A stretch of 48,243 nucleotides of DNA from a phage, in sequence record PZ150741.1. The stretch is one strand, 5' to 3'. The notes under the pieces were generated by a model. It ran no database searches. It saw nothing but the letters and a program-made list of their open reading frames with translations, and was not told where the DNA came from. Of the stretch, positions 1,340 to 32,699 are shown piece after piece. A program made the translations under genes and the position numbers. Positions within the stretch are counted from its first letter, which is position 1. Every line of letters starts with the position of its first letter.

Positions 1340-1539
1340 CCAGCATCCTTTTTATCTGGGTACTGTCTGCAGGTCAGATGCATCTGGCGGCATCAGAAAC
1401 GTTTTACTCGATGGAGGCGTGCCGGTCAGCGGCACGCGCCGCAGAGAACGCACACTTCCTGTTTCAGGGCGACAAGCCCAACGATTCAGAGGTACGCGCT
1501 ATCTGCTCACCTAAGCGACTTGGTAAACAGGAGAAGTGA
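1336..1539 (+). CDS. hypothetical small protein with hydrophobic signal-peptide-like N-terminus
   Basis: Track ORF 1321-1539; ATG at 1336 overlaps upstream stop (ATGA); N-terminus MTSILFIWVLSAGQMHLAAS. Confidence 0.4.
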   Translation: MTSILFIWVLSAGQMHLAASETFYSMEACRSAARAAENAHFLFQGDKPNDSEVRAICSPKRLGKQEK

Positions 1540-1541
1540 TT

Positions 1542-1790
1542 ATGGTTAAATTATACGCAGAGCGCGATTTAGAAATGCTCGACATGACTAACAATTACTA
1601 TTCAAGACATGTGATGGCTATGACGGAGGAAGGATTGAACAGTAAATCATCTATCGCTGCTGAGTTGGCGTACCGTGACTGGATTATTGATGAACAGCAA
1701 AAAGAGTTACAGAAATACAAAGACCAGTTCCCGGATTACGTCGAGTGCGCGAACTGTGGGTTGGTCACACATGTGGAAGGGGTAGAGTGA
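1542..1790 (+). CDS. hypothetical protein (82 aa)
   Basis: Track ORF 1536-1790; ATG at 1542 after AGGAGAAG. Confidence 0.45.
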   Translation: MVKLYAERDLEMLDMTNNYYSRHVMAMTEEGLNSKSSIAAELAYRDWIIDEQQKELQKYKDQFPDYVECANCGLVTHVEGVE

Positions 1791-1792
1791 TT

Positions 1793-2011
1793 ATGATATT
1801 CAGAGACCGTAGCAGCTTAAGAACACCGGATTGTCCTACGTTCGAGTTCGAAGACAAAGACGGAGATGTATGCTGTATTCAATTTTATAGAGACGATGAA
1901 GGTGAGTGCGGGCTTGTAGAGTTGCAGGTTTACAGTGAAACCGGTTGTGTTGTATTAAGTGCAGATGATGCGGAATCACTAGCTCGTAAGATACTTGAGG
2001 GCGTTAAATGA
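1793..2011 (+). CDS. hypothetical protein (72 aa)
   Basis: Track ORF 1745-2011; ATG at 1793 after GAAGGGG, follows upstream stop. Confidence 0.45.
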   Translation: MIFRDRSSLRTPDCPTFEFEDKDGDVCCIQFYRDDEGECGLVELQVYSETGCVVLSADDAESLARKILEGVK

Positions 2012-2301
2012 GCCTCGCAACTGACATCCTGAAACGAAGCGGCCTTGCGCCGCTGTCACCGAGAGCGAACACCCAAATATACAAGCGCCGCCGTAATGCG
2101 CTGTACCCCGAGATTCAGGCCAGACGCAAAGCTATCCGCGCCTGTGGATTCCAGAACGGGAAGGCCGTGAATCTCGGTGAGTTTAAAACACAGGAACGCG
2201 CAGCAATCGCTAACCGGTTATTTAATTACTGGAAATCGCTGGGGTACGATGATATTCCGACGAAACCACAGAGACGACAATACATCTGGAGACACAAATA
2301 A
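2008..2301 (+). CDS. hypothetical basic protein (97 aa)
   Basis: Track ORF; start overlaps upstream stop; Arg/Lys-rich. Confidence 0.45.
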   Translation: MSLATDILKRSGLAPLSPRANTQIYKRRRNALYPEIQARRKAIRACGFQNGKAVNLGEFKTQERAAIANRLFNYWKSLGYDDIPTKPQRRQYIWRHK

Positions 2302-2376
2302 ACAACTATTAGGATAATTCCTACCCGTGGTATCCTCCAGTTACTGCATACTTAATACGCACCTGGAGGATTCATC

Positions 2377-2685
2377 TTGGATAAATTTACTGAAACAGTG
2401 ACAGGCTGGCTTCTAGCTGCCGCGCTCGCCGGAGGGGTAATCGGACTACGACAACATAAGTCCGTTATTTCTGGCCCCACCGACGGCTTCTGCTTTATTG
2501 CTACTGGCTTCACTTGCGCCGTATTTGGTGCACCTCTTGCCGCTCAATGGTTCGGAATCACGGGCGACCGTGAAATCGCCGGGTTGGGCTTCATTATCGC
2601 TGTTCTCTGGATGCCTATCTATTCCCGTCTATCCAGTATCGTAGCCGGGGAATACATCGCACGTCGAGGAGGCACAGATGAATGA
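2377..2685 (+). CDS. holin-like membrane protein (about 3 TM segments)
   Basis: TTG start after GGAGGA; three hydrophobic segments; directly upstream of second membrane protein and endolysin. Confidence 0.45.
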   Translation: MDKFTETVTGWLLAAALAGGVIGLRQHKSVISGPTDGFCFIATGFTCAVFGAPLAAQWFGITGDREIAGLGFIIAVLWMPIYSRLSSIVAGEYIARRGGTDE

Positions 2686-2950
2686 GTTATTCTGGTTCGG
2701 CGGTATGCTGGCAATCGGGGGCACATCGCTGTTTAATGTGTACCACCCCAGCGTGGACGATGGGTTATTTGGTAGGGTGCTCTATATCCTGACAGCTATC
2801 GTCTGCGCCGCCGGATGTATCCACTTGCTACAGGGCAGCATGTCCCCGACGCTGCCTGAGACGTTAATCACATTAGTTGCGCTGCGCCAGATTCGCCAGG
2901 CGTGGTTGTCATACGGAGGACATAAGCGTGTCTCGAAATATTTCAGATAA
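2678..2950 (+). CDS. holin/antiholin-like membrane protein (2 TM segments)
   Basis: Two hydrophobic helices; overlaps both neighbours in the lysis cassette. Confidence 0.45.
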   Translation: MNELFWFGGMLAIGGTSLFNVYHPSVDDGLFGRVLYILTAIVCAAGCIHLLQGSMSPTLPETLITLVALRQIRQAWLSYGGHKRVSKYFR

Positions 2951-3416
2951 TGGGTTGCATTTTACCGCTGCGTTCGAGGGATTCCGCGGAACTGCGTATC
3001 GTGCTACGCCGAACGAGAAGTACCTGACTATAGGCTATGGAAGCTACGGTCCGCATGTTAAGGCGGGGCAAACCATCACGCCTGGTCAGGGCTTACTATT
3101 ACTTAATCGCGATATGGCTAAAGCCGTAGTTGCGGTTGATGCGGCGGCGCACCACTCATTGACACAGGCGCAGTTCGATGCAGTGTGCGACCTGGTGTAT
3201 AACGCGGGTGCCGGAGTGATTGCGGCTACTACTGGCACAGGTAAGGCACTGCGTTCTGGCGATATTGCGACACTGCGGGCTAAGCTGGCGCTGTTCATCA
3301 ACCAGAACGGCAAACCGTTACTTGGCTTACGTCGTCGCGTAGCTGGTCGCCTGGCGCTGTTCGACGGTAAACCGTGGCAGGAGGCGGAGGCTATTGGACG
3401 TGCGGTGAAAGGTTGA
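2928..3416 (+). CDS. endolysin, GH24 lysozyme (T4/P22 lysozyme-like)
   Basis: GTG at 2928 after GGAGGA; motifs ISDNG, FEGF...YLTIGYG, QFDAVCDLVYNAG, RRRVAGRLALF resemble P22 gp19/T4 e lysozymes. Confidence 0.85.
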   Translation: MSRNISDNGLHFTAAFEGFRGTAYRATPNEKYLTIGYGSYGPHVKAGQTITPGQGLLLLNRDMAKAVVAVDAAAHHSLTQAQFDAVCDLVYNAGAGVIAATTGTGKALRSGDIATLRAKLALFINQNGKPLLGLRRRVAGRLALFDGKPWQEAEAIGRAVKG

Positions 3417-26827: not shown

Positions 26828-29194
26828 ATGTCAAGCGGATGCGGTGACGTTTTAAGCCTGGCGGATTTACAAACCGCCAAGAAGCACCAGATTTTTGAAG
26901 CTGAAGTTATCACAGGTAAATCTGGCGGAGTAGCCGGCGGTGCTGATATTGATTACGCGACAAACCAGGTTACAGGGCAGACCCAGAAGACGTTACCCGC
27001 CGTGTTGCGTGACGCGGGATTTTCTCCAGTGTCATGGGACTTTTCGACCGGCGGCACGCTAACTGTTAATGACCGCGACAAAGTTGTCTATGACCCGGTT
27101 AGCAAAACATGGTACTCGTACGCCGGCACTCTGCCTGTTACGGTTCCAGCTGGTTTTAACCCTGTGGGTAATGCGGATTGGAAACCGCAGACAGACCCCG
27201 ATTTGCGTCATGACATAAAAACTAACGGTCTTGACGGGGTTGTTATTACATCCGCAACGACGCAAGAAATATCCCTCCTTAATTTCACAAGTGGGAAAGT
27301 GCAGCTAACCGACAGAGACAATTGCTTGTTTGAAGTATTACCTCCTGGAACGGCAACGCCAGATGGGTATGCGTATTTGGGTATGCCTAACGGTTATGTT
27401 CTTGCGCTACTTGATTCAAATGGCTCTTACAATGTGCGCGGAGCTGGTGCTGTCGGAGATGGTTACAACGATGATGGTCTACCTATCGCAAGCCTTGTTA
27501 AAAGAGCGATGCAGACAAAAAAAGGGGATTTTGTATTTCCTGCAGTCGGCGCTGGGGAATCCTATGTCCTCAAGACCCCTGTAGATTTAATTTTTTCCAG
27601 TGCGACAATAGACCCGCCATCATTCACTTTTCGCGGGGTAGGTTCGGTTAATGGTCTCAGTATGCAGACTCGAATCGCCCACATTCGCGAAACGTACGGT
27701 ATAAAGCAGCGTAATATTGGAGCAACTTACCGTGACTTTCAGGCTATTGTATACTGCGGAGCACCTGCAAACATTATCAGCACCGGAGTTAACACCATTA
27801 CTCTGGACAGGAACCCATTCGGCGGAAATGGTGGCACCCCTGTAACATGGAATAGCACTGTTACTGCCGGAGATGGCACGCAGTATAGCTCTGGTTACGT
27901 CCAATTCGCGACAAACGCCGGTAGTTTTTATGCAAGCTCTTTCACGGATAATGGTGATGGAACATACACATTCGGCAATGTTAGACATGTAACATCTGCG
28001 TCAACCGACCTGACAACAAGCACACGAATTGTGCGTTTTTCATGCCGTGCACACTTTGAACCATCTGATGGCGGTAAATATCCAACCCCATCTGGTTATG
28101 CTGTTACCGCTGGTTTTATTTGGGCTGATACTCTTGAGAACATCCATATCGATCATGTTTGGTTTCTTCAACAGTTAAGATGTGTGGTACATGATTTGGG
28201 CGCTGGTGGCAGTGGTGATTCAGGGATAGGTAACATAGGTACTGTATCCAACGTAATCGTTGACGGGGCTTTCTCTTTTATGACCAACACCGATTTGTCG
28301 GCCTCGAGCGCACAGTCACTTAACGGCGGACATTTTTCCAACGTTCAGTTTTATTCTGTTAGGGCGCCATTTGTAGGGCGAAGAATACAGAATATTAACA
28401 TGGCTTCATTGCAATTATTTAGTTCAGATGGCCTGTTCTTTGCGCGTGATATTTCTCATGTGGCTATCCCAGGTGCAATATTGGGCTGGGACGGTACAAC
28501 AGGATTCTGTAAAAATATTGTTGTTTGTGAAAACATAGAAGATGCTAACTTCGGTTCATGTGTATTTGGGCGACACCAACACTCAACTCCAGTCATGACG
28601 TTTAACTCAGTTAACGGGCTATCTCTGGTCGGCGCAACACTCGGTACTGTATCTGAGGGTGCCACCGTCGGGGCGTGGATGTATGTAACAGGGAGCAACT
28701 ATAATATATCGGGGTTGAATATTTCAGTATCAATAGCGCACTTAACCGGTTCAGGAAGAAATGAATTGACGCTTTTAGCGGAAGATACGACAACAACTTC
28801 TGTTAACATGTTACGAAATAAATTTAGTTCTCGTGTTTATACAAATATCGCTAGAGACCTGAGAGATTACGACAGCACATCTGGTTTTTACGGTTATCTA
28901 TATTCAGGGGGCTCACCAAATGGTGGTTACAGCTTTGCTTTTAGTGTTGATGTATCTAGCTGGACACCATCTCTGAAAAGGAAGGCGATAAAACTTGGCG
29001 GGGCATTGACGTCTTCTGTGTCAAAAACTCTGCCAAGCGCCATAACTGAACCCGATAACGCTTCTGATTTTATAATAGATACCTCGTCTGTAGCACTTGG
29101 TTCTTACACGCTTACAGTATCAGGGTATACTTTAACCGCAGGAGTGCATGTGTTTAAGTGGGTCGGTTCATGGATACTGGTGTCCAGCAAATAA
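26828..29194 (+). CDS. tailspike / tail fiber protein with probable beta-helix receptor-binding domain
   Basis: 788-aa last late gene; N-terminal region resembles conserved siphovirus tailspike anchor domains; Gly/Ser/Thr/Asn-rich body. Confidence 0.55.
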   Translation: MSSGCGDVLSLADLQTAKKHQIFEAEVITGKSGGVAGGADIDYATNQVTGQTQKTLPAVLRDAGFSPVSWDFSTGGTLTVNDRDKVVYDPVSKTWYSYAGTLPVTVPAGFNPVGNADWKPQTDPDLRHDIKTNGLDGVVITSATTQEISLLNFTSGKVQLTDRDNCLFEVLPPGTATPDGYAYLGMPNGYVLALLDSNGSYNVRGAGAVGDGYNDDGLPIASLVKRAMQTKKGDFVFPAVGAGESYVLKTPVDLIFSSATIDPPSFTFRGVGSVNGLSMQTRIAHIRETYGIKQRNIGATYRDFQAIVYCGAPANIISTGVNTITLDRNPFGGNGGTPVTWNSTVTAGDGTQYSSGYVQFATNAGSFYASSFTDNGDGTYTFGNVRHVTSASTDLTTSTRIVRFSCRAHFEPSDGGKYPTPSGYAVTAGFIWADTLENIHIDHVWFLQQLRCVVHDLGAGGSGDSGIGNIGTVSNVIVDGAFSFMTNTDLSASSAQSLNGGHFSNVQFYSVRAPFVGRRIQNINMASLQLFSSDGLFFARDISHVAIPGAILGWDGTTGFCKNIVVCENIEDANFGSCVFGRHQHSTPVMTFNSVNGLSLVGATLGTVSEGATVGAWMYVTGSNYNISGLNISVSIAHLTGSGRNELTLLAEDTTTTSVNMLRNKFSSRVYTNIARDLRDYDSTSGFYGYLYSGGSPNGGYSFAFSVDVSSWTPSLKRKAIKLGGALTSSVSKTLPSAITEPDNASDFIIDTSSVALGSYTLTVSGYTLTAGVHVFKWVGSWILVSSK

Positions 29195-29872: not shown

Positions 29873-31293
29873 TTCTTACCTCGTCTCTTCATGTAATTAA
29901 GCAACTCTTCCTGTACCGATTTCTTCTCGTCTGTACGCGCGGCGACAACCTCGTCCAGCGTGTCTTTAGCCACGATGTGGTAGAGAAACACCGGGCGCTC
30001 GTGGCCCGCCTGTTTCTGGCGAACGGGGCCGATGCGCTCAACGACCTGCAAATAGTGCTCAAGGTTCCAGCCTTGCGAGATAAACGCCAGATGATGGCCG
30101 CCGTCCTGTAAATTCAAACCATGACCGGCTGACGCAGGGTGAACGCACAAAATCTCGATTTCACCACGGTTCCACGCTTCCATCTGCTTATTACCCTTAG
30201 CGCCTTTGGCAAACGCCTGCGCCTGTGGGAATCGCTTAAGGATGCGCTCAAGTTCGTGCTTGAACTGATAGGCCACCAGTAACGGTGCACCCTGTAGCTC
30301 CTCAACAATCGACTCCAGCGCATCCAGTTTCGTGTCGTGAACTTTCTCCCAGTCTTTGGTCGCTTCTCCGTCTGGCCCTGACACATACACGGCACCGGAC
30401 GCAATCTGCAGGCACTTCGACGTCTTCGCCGCAGCGTTAGCCGCTTCGACTTCCCCGCTCTCCAGTTCCGCGAATAACTTCTCCTCCATATCGATGTACG
30501 CCTGACGCGCTTTCTTCGGCAGGTCGATTTCAACCGGCACAATAATCGGCGCTTCGCAACCGAACCACTCTGCGGCGTCAATCGTAAGACTAATGTCCTT
30601 CATCTTCTGGTGAATTTCATTATCTGCGCCTGGGCGTGCATGATATTCACGCGCCATAGCTGACTTACCTTTCTGGACAGAGTTAAACCAGCGGTCGGTG
30701 AATGCCGTATATGAAGAACCGAGGCGCTCGCCTGCGTCAATAAACCAGTTCTGACCCCACAGGTCTTTGAGGCCGTTTGGTGATGGTGTGCCTGTCAGGT
30801 TAATGAACCGCTTAACCTTTCCGAACGCCACTTTGCTGAGCGCCTTAGCCCGCTTGCTACCCCCTGAACGGCTACGGAATGATTTTAGCTTCGTACTCTC
30901 GTCGGCGACGATAACCGTAAAAGGCCAGTCGTCTTTGCCGTAGTAGTCAATCAGCCACTCGATAACTTCGTAGTTAGTGCACACCACGTTAGCGTCTGAC
31001 TCCAGCGCCGCAATACGGCGTTTCTCCGAACCCGTTGCATCGACGACACGCAGGCACGGGAAACCCCACTTAGTTTGTTCTGCAGGCCACGTACCGGACG
31101 CAACACGTAACGGGGCGAGGATTAACACGCGGTCCTCTTCCGTAAGCTGACCGTTGCGGAACAGGCGGTTTAATGTCCACAGTACGCTGCCAGTCTTCCC
31201 GGCACCCATGCTCGCCCATATGTTGCAGCGATGGTGTTGCAACATGAACGAAGTCATGAGCTTCTGATATTCGCGCCTTTGAAACTTACCCAT
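29869..31293 (-). CDS. SNF2/DEAD-like superfamily 2 helicase
   Basis: Walker A MGAGKTGS, DExx box VADEST, C-terminal HPASAGHGLNLQ helicase motif VI-like. Confidence 0.8.
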   Translation of the reverse strand: MGKFQRREYQKLMTSFMLQHHRCNIWASMGAGKTGSVLWTLNRLFRNGQLTEEDRVLILAPLRVASGTWPAEQTKWGFPCLRVVDATGSEKRRIAALESDANVVCTNYEVIEWLIDYYGKDDWPFTVIVADESTKLKSFRSRSGGSKRAKALSKVAFGKVKRFINLTGTPSPNGLKDLWGQNWFIDAGERLGSSYTAFTDRWFNSVQKGKSAMAREYHARPGADNEIHQKMKDISLTIDAAEWFGCEAPIIVPVEIDLPKKARQAYIDMEEKLFAELESGEVEAANAAAKTSKCLQIASGAVYVSGPDGEATKDWEKVHDTKLDALESIVEELQGAPLLVAYQFKHELERILKRFPQAQAFAKGAKGNKQMEAWNRGEIEILCVHPASAGHGLNLQDGGHHLAFISQGWNLEHYLQVVERIGPVRQKQAGHERPVFLYHIVAKDTLDEVVAARTDEKKSVQEELLNYMKRRGKK

Positions 31294-32203
31294 TTACCAC
31301 CCCCATGAACGCCTTTATAAATTCAGCGGCTACTTGCGGGACGATGGCATTGCCGTAACCGCGCAATCGTCCCACTCTGGCGGGTATCCCATTAGCCAGC
31401 GGGAATGTGCCGGGTTCAACTGGCCGGAATTTCCCATCCCGGCAGCCGAGCCAGTCAGCATCTGACCAGAAGCCGTGATACGAATTGGTTGCGTTATCGC
31501 CGCCGCTTGTGCCACGTCTTGAGGTCCACCCTTCCTCTGAATCTCTGATAGCGCCCCCTCTAGTGTTCTCACGTTCTTTTCCCCGTCCGCACTGCGAGGA
31601 GTAGGCCAATTCGCTTTCCACACTTCCCGCCCCAACAGGCTGTTGGTAGGCACATTCAGGCATTCCTTCCCGTCTTTGTGGTCGCGCGTTGTTGGCGTCG
31701 GCCAATTCGTGCGCACCAAAGAAGAGTCGTTCTCTTTTGTGCGGAGCGCCGACGCTACAAGCTGGGAGTACGGCAAACCCGACGGCGTAGTCTTCTCCTT
31801 CCAGGTGAGCTTGTAAATCGCACATCCACGATTTTGCAATTGCTGGTGCAACCTGTTCCCCAAAGAGGACTGGAGGGCGGCACTCGCTGATGAGGTCGAG
31901 GAAAACTGGCGCGAGGTGTCTCGGGTCGAACTGCCCGAGTTGTTTTCCCGCCGCGCTAAACGGTTGGCAAGGCGGGCTTCCCGTCCAGAGAGGCGTATCT
32001 TCCGAAACTCCCGCAAGTCTGAGCGCGAGAGGCCAGCCGCCGATACCAGCGAAAAAATGACACTGGGTGAATCCGTCAAGGTCTTCTGGTCTAATTTCGG
32101 TAATGCTTCTTTCATCTACAACTCCAAAAGGTATATGACCCTGTTTTATTAGTTCGCGCAGCCACGCGGCTGCGCCTTTATCCCATTCGTTGTAATAGTT
32201 CAT
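31286..32203 (-). CDS. DNA (cytosine-5)-methyltransferase, compact
   Basis: Motif I FFAGIGGW, motif IV PPCQPFSAAG, ENV-like FGEQV, motif X YGNAIVPQVA. Confidence 0.75.
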   Translation of the reverse strand: MNYYNEWDKGAAAWLRELIKQGHIPFGVVDERSITEIRPEDLDGFTQCHFFAGIGGWPLALRLAGVSEDTPLWTGSPPCQPFSAAGKQLGQFDPRHLAPVFLDLISECRPPVLFGEQVAPAIAKSWMCDLQAHLEGEDYAVGFAVLPACSVGAPHKRERLFFGAHELADANNARPQRREGMPECAYQQPVGAGSVESELAYSSQCGRGKERENTRGGAIRDSEEGWTSRRGTSGGDNATNSYHGFWSDADWLGCRDGKFRPVEPGTFPLANGIPARVGRLRGYGNAIVPQVAAEFIKAFMGVVNG

Positions 32204-32391
32204 TTCGCCACCAGAACTAACTCTTTACGCCCGAATGCCGTAACGTTGCCCGTTACATCTTCGATAACCAGTTTACCGTTCGACTCGACGTACACCGTAT
32301 CAACGGCAACCGGCTGGCGGGTTTTAACGTTGAAAATCATGTCGCCTGGTACGATGTCACGTGCCGGTTTGCGGTCATATTCGTGTTTCAT
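32200..32391 (-). CDS. hypothetical small protein (63 aa)
   Basis: Track ORF, overlapping stop/start with methyltransferase gene. Confidence 0.45.
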   Translation of the reverse strand: MKHEYDRKPARDIVPGDMIFNVKTRQPVAVDTVYVESNGKLVIEDVTGNVTAFGRKELVLVAK

Positions 32392-32405
32392 TTCTCAATT
32401 CCTTA

Positions 32406-32699
32406 TCAGTATATTAATTCGTTTATTTTCTTATCCAGAGATTCTTTTGAGTAAAAGAAACCCATGTGTCTTCCTTTAAATACGAGCCTGTACACATTTT
32501 CCCCGTCTTCGGTAATAGAAAGGAAAACCTTACAACTAGTTCGGAACTCTCTTACTTTGTCACCAAACGCCAATTGCTCCCATTTTACTAAAGGAAATTC
32601 TTTTAACATATTAGTGTACAAGTCATTCGCGGTAGCCACTAAACCCGCATCTAACAGTACGGCGATTCTCTGTGCGTAATCTAAAAGGACCTTATTCAT
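32406..32699 (-). CDS. hypothetical protein (97 aa)
   Basis: Track ORF immediately downstream of near-consensus promoter. Confidence 0.5.
   Translation of the reverse strand: MNKVLLDYAQRIAVLLDAGLVATANDLYTNMLKEFPLVKWEQLAFGDKVREFRTSCKVFLSITEDGENVYRLVFKGRHMGFFYSKESLDKKINELIY

Follow-up and report, generated by a model that had tools for sequence, protein, structure and literature searches.

A long reading frame nested in a phage C5 cytosine methyltransferase gene and its possible role as a second enzyme subunit

A 48,243-nucleotide (nt) stretch of phage DNA, sequence record PZ150741.1 (the whole of which we call the window), comes from a K1G-like Kagunavirus (Guernseyvirinae) and carries on its minus strand a gene for a C5 cytosine methyltransferase, inside which lies a second long open reading frame (ORF). 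We refer to the methylase frame (frame A) as alpha and to the frame nested in it, at +1, as beta. The beta ORF, 261 amino acids (aa) long, sits entirely within the alpha ORF on the same strand and takes up 786 nt here and >1,200 nt in some relatives; it was overlooked in the initial annotation of the locus. The features of the two frames, with what each assignment is based on, are these:

31286-32203, minus strand: alpha, C5 cytosine methyltransferase catalytic chain, 305 aa (ATG-to-stop ORF, Pfam, PHROG and hhalign)
31330-32115, minus strand: beta, nested ORF in the +1 frame, 261 aa, candidate small subunit (ORF, PHROG and selection tests)
32162-32197, minus strand: alpha N-terminal YYNEWDKGAAAW, residues 3-14, motif-II-like and located before motif I (local phmmer match)
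32122-32125, minus strand: GGAG, Shine-Dalgarno-like, 6 nt upstream of the beta ATG at 32113-32115 (sequence)
32033-32056, minus strand: alpha motif I, FFAGIGGW, residues 50-57, S-adenosylmethionine binding (alignment to M.HhaI, pattern)
31946-31975, minus strand: alpha motif IV, PPCQPFSAAG, residues 77-86, with the catalytic Cys79 (alignment to M.HhaI)
31888-32115, minus strand: N-terminal ~76 residues of beta, open, with no beta-frame constraint detected and predicted to be disordered (codon pattern, AlphaFold2)
31850-31864, minus strand: alpha motif VI, FGEQV, a variant of ENV, residues 114-118 (alignment to M.HhaI)
31738-31878, minus strand: conserved helix and beta-hairpin of beta, residues 80-126, ending GCAIYKLTWKEKTTPSGLPYSQLVASALRT (alignment, z = 30, AlphaFold2)
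31718-31747, minus strand: alpha motif VIII, APHKRERLFF, residues 153-162 (alignment to M.HhaI)
31475-31708, minus strand: alpha spacer, residues 166-243, rich in G, R, E and S and in indels (alignment occupancy, composition)
31618-31707, minus strand: beta WPTP repeat 1 (alignment)
31495-31611, minus strand: beta WPTP repeat 2, NWPTPRSADGEKNVRTLEGALSEIQRKGGPQDVAQAAAI (alignment)
31358-31474, minus strand: conserved C-terminal element of alpha, GFWSDADWLGCRDGKFRPVEPGTFPLANGIPARVGRLRG, dual-coded with the C-terminal block of beta (alignment; both frames constrained)
31372-31422, minus strand: motif-IX-like block of beta (invariant residues, hhalign to M.HhaI)
31328-31357, minus strand: alpha motif X, YGNAIVPQVA, residues 283-292 (pattern)

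On sequence grounds, alpha is a genuine C5 cytosine methyltransferase. The initial annotation had described a 305-aa ORF at 31286-32203 of that identity, containing FFAGIGGW, PPCQPFSAAG, FGEQV and YGNAIVPQVA; the ORF spans exactly these coordinates from ATG to stop on the minus strand, all four motifs are present in it, and the identity is borne out by three kinds of match. Alpha hits PF00145 in Pfam (E = 1.2e-16, residues 72-169 only) and phrog_363, 'DNA methyltransferase', over its full length (3e-86), and a profile of diverse alpha homologues aligns by hhalign to M.HhaI (reference sequence identical to PDB 10mh_A) with 98.7% probability and E = 3e-16 across motifs I and IV-VIII. Within this alignment, FFAGIGGW, which is invariant in homologues, falls on M.HhaI FAGLGG, PPCQPFS on GFPCQAFS, FGEQV on FMENV and PHKRERLFF on PQKRERIYM (motif VIII, QxRxR). 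Conservation of the catalytic cysteine had been named beforehand as a point on which the assignment could fail, and Pro78-Cys79-Gln80 proved invariant from phages of E. coli to the very distant phages of Lacticaseibacillus, Rhodobacter and cyanobacteria. Motif X was recognized by pattern; its G284, N285 and A286 are invariant in homologues, and its profile matches to Pfam or M.HhaI fell below significance.

Two elements of a canonical C5 methylase are missing from their usual places in alpha. Motifs II-III are absent between motifs I and IV, where hhalign leaves a 35-aa gap relative to M.HhaI. The N-terminal YYNEWDKGAAAW (YYNEWD) resembles the M.HhaI motif II, YSNEWDKYAQE, with a local phmmer match that is not significant, and the canonical II-III order is kept in a Lacticaseibacillus phage homologue; motifs II-III may be permuted within this methylase family. 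In addition, no motif IX was found in alpha by hhalign, with nothing past motif VIII aligning to M.HhaI.

The beta frame is not an accident of one genome. It matches phrog_1008, also named 'DNA methyltransferase', at 1e-54; Pfam and NCBIfam searched with beta gave no family, and a beta profile run against PDB sequences gave chance matches to coronavirus spike only. A tblastn search with the conserved part of beta recovered 250 phage records, and a search with the Lacticaseibacillus homologue recovered 180, more or overlapping, including Paenibacillus, Mycobacterium, Microbacterium, Microcystis and Acinetobacter phages. In every annotated case inspected (RcDora, Vaitephage, SEN5, PhiXhv-1, Lacticaseibacillus R9.1, cyanophage Cy-LDV1, Che9d and Diva, with K1G nested likewise), beta is displaced by 3n+1 relative to the start annotated for the methylase, and each of the two long frames is free of stops. 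An exhaustive HMMER scan placed 10,185 representative clusters in the beta family at E <= 1e-3, and the motifs of the protein are kept in phages of Proteobacteria, Firmicutes, Actinobacteria and Cyanobacteria. Among the loci inspected, beta was always inside a C5 methylase gene and never free-standing. Both frames are annotated in phage K1G, as a 'C-specific methylase' and a nested 'Mte8-like protein', and in Paenibacillus phage Diva the beta equivalent is listed as 'g49 internal gene'; most other database records carry a single frame. Literature on 'Mte8' amounted to a passing mention, and the Paenibacillus phage papers held no discussion of the annotated 'internal gene'.

The openness of beta is well beyond what the alpha protein would produce by itself. 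We compared 65 alpha genes of 44-98% identity with a null in which synonymous codons were permuted within each gene. The +1 frame is stop-free across 83-94% of alpha in about 60 of the 65 genes, a length that synonymous permutation reproduces with P < 0.002 in most loci, and the +2 frame is never open for more than 94 codons. Two loci (L026 and L038) depart from the paired pattern through a change of frame in the T-run of the motif I Phe-Phe codons, probably a homopolymer error.

Conservation of the beta frame was measured in pairs of <55% identity, against a null that keeps the alpha protein and shuffles its synonymous codons. In alpha codons 1-29, which serve as an alpha-only control, beta-frame identity was 0.268 against 0.255 for the null (z = 1.7), and in codons 30-108, spanning motifs I-IV, it was 0.283 against 0.251 (z = 6). 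It rose to 0.297 against 0.176 in codons 109-172, which hold motifs VI-VIII (z = 30), and to 0.411 against 0.220 at the C-terminus, codons 253-291 (z = 26). The reverse test, of alpha constraint given beta, yielded z = 26-75. With both tests strongly positive for motifs VI-VIII and for the C-terminus, these two stretches are truly dual-coding.

Codon-position diversity in 27 closer relatives gives the same picture. Over alpha codons 1-105 and 286-300 variation has its normal form and peaks at the third position (0.36-0.51); across codons 106-150 and 241-285 the diversity of that position is down to 0.15-0.26. At codons 121-135 and 166-180 it is the first position of alpha that varies most, which is the wobble position of beta. 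The normal pattern returns immediately past the beta stop, at alpha codon ~291.

Beta also has a start signal of its own. In the window, a TAG stop in the beta frame immediately precedes the beta ATG, and the GGAG lies upstream of it. In 60 of 61 loci, an ATG in the beta frame falls within alpha codons 21-45; GGAG, AGGAG or AAGGAG usually stands ahead of it, and in the proteobacterial type the ATG always comes before motif I. The site varies by lineage, and since these Shine-Dalgarno and ATG sites differ between lineages, the pattern points to independent initiation of beta and not to a fixed frameshift site. By these comparisons, alpha and beta are each open and conserved, and each is under purifying selection of its own, in phages whose diversity reaches the level of phyla. 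Five independent lines (breadth, openness, conservation, codon positions and start signal), all read from sequence, thus identify beta as a real coding sequence.

The constraint on beta is distributed unevenly along the protein. Residues 1-76 overlap alpha motifs I-IV and carry an alpha-only codon pattern, the z of 6 being the only excess, and residues 1-74 are predicted by AlphaFold2 with a predicted local distance difference test score (pLDDT) of <50. The openness of this leader has P of about 0.07 per locus under synonymous shuffling. The beta frame thus contains no stop in the ~75 codons that precede its constrained core, even though beta-frame selection is absent there; one possibility is that the loop of alpha before motif I is the sole place that tolerates an embedded Shine-Dalgarno sequence and ATG, which would explain the early start. 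The conserved helix and hairpin that follow have the consensus L..L..rL....GSTlY.LtWK..tTPsGr...LrAS.rRTS and overlap alpha motifs VI-VIII; the hairpin, at pLDDT 82-85, is the only part of beta modelled with confidence.

Next in beta comes a tandem array of ~39-aa repeats that start with W-P-T-P, in two copies here and 1-8 in relatives. We counted 123 array architectures in 374 proteins. Under single-linkage clustering, 758 of 1030 repeats collapse into one cluster, so the WPTP repeats form one homologous family; the clustering did not establish a limited set of discrete module types. The C-terminal block opens with P.R.TASG..LTGS.AGM, closes with PpEW and contains the invariant residues L233, P235, W240, L241, M242 and W248. 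The sole hhalign match of the beta profile on M.HhaI falls here, on motif IX (RKLHPRECARVMGYPDSYKVH), and is weak (E = 0.17). The pattern L.P......MGYP..[WY] is common to the two, and on the DNA the block lies just upstream of alpha motif X. In a few ORFs (P0246, P0241 and P0316) the beta frame runs on into a Dam adenine methylase, a DUF2800/PD-(D/E)XK or a C-terminal HNH domain, and these continuations may be true fusions or may come from reading on into the next gene. Since such long proteins may be read-throughs favoured by a choice on length, they were left out of the evidence that beta is translated.

What alpha encodes opposite the repeats bears on how its size should be read. The initial annotation saw a compact enzyme with a very short target-recognition region and predicted a short recognition site. 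Neither step held up: motifs VIII and X lie 120 aa apart, close to the roughly 135 aa that separate them in M.HhaI, and most of this interval is an indel-rich spacer. Over residues 166-243, G, R, E and S make up 48% of alpha, compared with 27% elsewhere in the chain; the segment is poor in hydrophobic residues, its alignment occupancy is 0.36-0.88, and its codon pattern is dominated by the beta frame. In alpha, this low-complexity spacer occupies the place expected of a classical variable region, and its sequence is dictated by the nested beta gene. Total alpha length correlates with the number of WPTP repeats in beta (r = 0.85), and because it tracks repeat number, the compactness of alpha reflects a beta with two repeats and not a short target-recognition domain (TRD). 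The true size saving relative to M.HhaI is the 35-aa gap between motifs I and IV. The length of the recognition site cannot be read from the size of alpha.

The surroundings of the gene are those of a replication block, as the initial annotation had it: around it lie genes for a primase, a helicase, a VRR-NUC-type nuclease/resolvase and a DNA polymerase, along with two small unknowns. Its statement that no cognate endonuclease gene is visible likewise stood, with no restriction endonuclease found among the neighbouring genes. Given the replication-gene setting and the lack of a restriction endonuclease nearby, it is reasonable to regard the methylase gene as an orphan in a lytic phage with a self-protective role. 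By megablast, 419 phage records match window positions 31000-32500, the best full-length ones at 90-93% identity. Just upstream of the replication block, a 788-aa ORF lies on the plus strand at 26828-29194; the corresponding place holds a gene annotated 'tailspike 63D sialidase' in K1G and 'tailspike protein' in phiEc3, a match by position and annotation.

There is one characterised C5 methylase with a nested beta chain (PMC2836561), M.EcoHK31I of E. coli HK31, which belongs to a restriction-modification system and recognizes YGGCCR (PMC2836561, PMC3404938). Its alpha chain holds motifs I-VIII, motif X and the TRD, and its beta chain holds motif IX; the beta coding sequence lies within the alpha gene in a different frame, and the enzyme is active only with both chains (PMC2836561, PMC3404938). 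The first ~37-42 residues of that beta are largely dispensable, and the beta N-terminus helps association (PMC2836561, PMC3404938).

With this system as a guide, our preferred reading, to which we give a probability of roughly 0.6, is that the locus encodes an orphan alpha/beta heterodimeric C5 methylase that methylates phage DNA against host restriction. We infer that beta is translated and assembles with alpha, and likewise infer what the repeats do, what site is recognized and that methylation counters restriction, along the following lines. One stretch of DNA would give rise to two proteins, alpha of 305 aa and beta of 261 aa, the latter translated independently in the +1 frame from its own GGAG-N6-ATG. 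Alpha would supply the catalytic domain, with motifs I, IV (Cys79), VI, VIII and X. Beta would consist of a disordered leader of ~75 residues followed by the helix-hairpin, the two WPTP repeats and the motif-IX-like block. By analogy with M.EcoHK31I, the two chains would assemble into an active enzyme, in which beta would provide motif IX and probably share in DNA recognition. By methylating the phage's own DNA during replication, the enzyme would protect it from host restriction. In favour of two chains, none of the 316 beta-type proteins has the full catalytic motif set in its own chain, so no single-frame canonical version of the enzyme turned up.

Several observations pull the other way. 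The motif IX match of beta is statistically weak at the E value given above, and the AlphaFold2 models have a mean pLDDT of only 48.7 for beta (73-sequence alignment) and 34.9 for alpha (43 close homologues). A composite chain built from alpha motifs I-VIII, the beta repeats with motif IX, and alpha motif X showed no gain in Pfam over alpha alone, alpha's own motif X being undetected as well. At one locus (L055) a stop interrupts beta, and in Pseudomonas phage PMG1 (L008) alpha is interrupted while beta is intact and annotated. The comparison with M.EcoHK31I is itself imperfect in two respects: the TRD there is in alpha, whereas alpha here has a low-complexity spacer, and the beta N-terminus aids association there, whereas the first 75 residues here are without frame-specific selection. 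Short C-terminal fragments searched against Pfam also gave no matches.

The alternative that fares best, unlikely as we consider it, is that beta is real and translated but works independently of alpha, as a DNA-binding, regulatory or anti-defence protein, and that overprinting merely saves genome space. This would fit with the lack of any relative of beta detectable in PDB or Pfam and with a core made of an uncharacterised repeat array; the fusion of the beta frame to Dam, HNH or PD-(D/E)XK in some contigs and the retention of beta in PMG1 lean in the same direction. However, beta has stayed within C5 methylase genes at all loci inspected. The motif IX that is missing from alpha has a possible counterpart in beta, in a block just before alpha motif X, and M.EcoHK31I, the only characterised nested case, needs both chains (PMC2836561).

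It is very unlikely that alpha is a compact monomeric orphan methylase and the nested ORF an untranslated by-product of its sequence. Annotation of one frame only in most database records would agree with such a view, as would the location of motifs I, IV, VI, VIII and X all in alpha. Yet selection on alpha alone cannot account for the openness of the +1 frame, the excess conservation in the beta frame and the suppressed synonymous diversity of alpha, nor for the beta-dominant wobble at alpha codons 121-135 and 166-180 and the conserved Shine-Dalgarno sequence and ATG; the control regions, by comparison, behave as single-coding. Least likely of all is a programmed ribosomal frameshift or transcriptional slippage that joins the catalytic half of alpha to the beta frame and possibly back, for which the order of alpha I-VIII, beta repeats with IX, and alpha X (mimicking a canonical monomer), rare database proteins that begin in alpha and continue in beta (P0043, P0116 and P0315), and the T6 run in motif I where two contigs change frame could be cited, but which requires two shifts at no conserved site that we saw, has no need of a beta with its own Shine-Dalgarno sequence, ATG and ~75 open codons upstream of the core, would exclude from the fusion the conserved beta block over alpha motifs VI-VIII, and finds no model in the natural fusions, which look like indels because their junctions fall at varied early positions, they lack motifs VI-X and they are single contigs.

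The implications of a heterodimeric methylase at this locus would extend beyond the window. The beta family has >10,000 clusters, is without a Pfam model and usually goes unannotated; long same-strand nested genes kept across phyla are rare and are usually dropped by gene callers. Our results suggest that C5 methylases of the nested two-polypeptide kind are much commoner in phages than one would gather from the accessible literature, and the family-wide reach of nested beta appears to be undescribed. If the two-subunit reading is true, many 'small' phage cytosine methylases have been annotated as incomplete enzymes, expression of alpha alone would give misleading negatives, and specificity predictions based on alpha would be wrong. 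The repeat array of beta would in that case offer a natural modular handle on methylation specificity, and the beta frame a possible answer to how out-of-frame HNH domains in phage methylase genes are translated. A broader proposal, which we hold tentatively and at somewhat less than even odds, is that the nesting of beta in alpha defines a very large family of phage C5 methylases that spans phyla, in which beta carries motif IX and 1-8 WPTP repeats that set recognition, alpha tolerates the repeats as a disordered spacer, and the beta frame gives the hidden HNH a translated context.

Among known enzymes, M.HhaI shares motifs I, IV, VI and VIII with alpha in alignment, and LNP..WLMGYP..W of beta lines up with its motif IX, RKLHPRECARVMGYPDSY. 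It differs in being one polypeptide that keeps motifs II-III between I and IV and encodes its TRD and motif IX in the same frame. The multispecific C5 methylases of Bacillus phages such as SPR and phi3T have tandem, modular units in variable number in their specificity region, their TRDs being in-frame within a single chain. The likeness of the WPTP array to these, drawn from their description, is one of modularity only.

A second point of comparison is the ShiLan-type 'hidden HNH', an insertion in actinophage methylases that is stop-free in the methylase frame and encodes an HNH in another frame, and whose route of translation is an open question (PMC11855218). Insertions of that kind (ShiLan itself being known to us by description) are found in relatives of our locus, namely L075, L023 and L024, whereas the window has no such insertion. 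In L075 (alpha 1413-3188, beta 1498-3144), ~240 aa are inserted just after motif VI and contain an HNH-like zinc ribbon in-frame with beta. L023 and L024 have an HNH ORF, in the +1 frame, that follows the beta stop and precedes alpha motif X. Nested beta is also present in Che9d gp80 (L076), from a Cluster F phage.

Two-chain C5 methylases offer the closest parallels. M.AquI is a natural two-polypeptide enzyme, split in the variable region, whose beta chain has motifs IX and X (PMC3404938). It resembles our locus in having two chains; it differs in that motif X is in beta and nesting is not described there (PMC3404938), whereas here alpha keeps motif X and beta is fully nested. No link between the phage beta family and M.EcoHK31I was made in the literature searched. 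The differences between the two, beyond those weighed above, are that M.EcoHK31I is a restriction-modification enzyme, in contrast to an orphan in a lytic phage, and that beta here is larger, with a variable WPTP repeat array. In both, the beta ORF lies wholly inside alpha in a different frame, here +1, and alpha here has motifs I, IV-VIII and X (with II-III atypical) and is without motif IX. Because the anatomy is the same, we class the locus with M.EcoHK31I and file it as one that would work in the same manner, likened to that enzyme by its described architecture and not by sequence.

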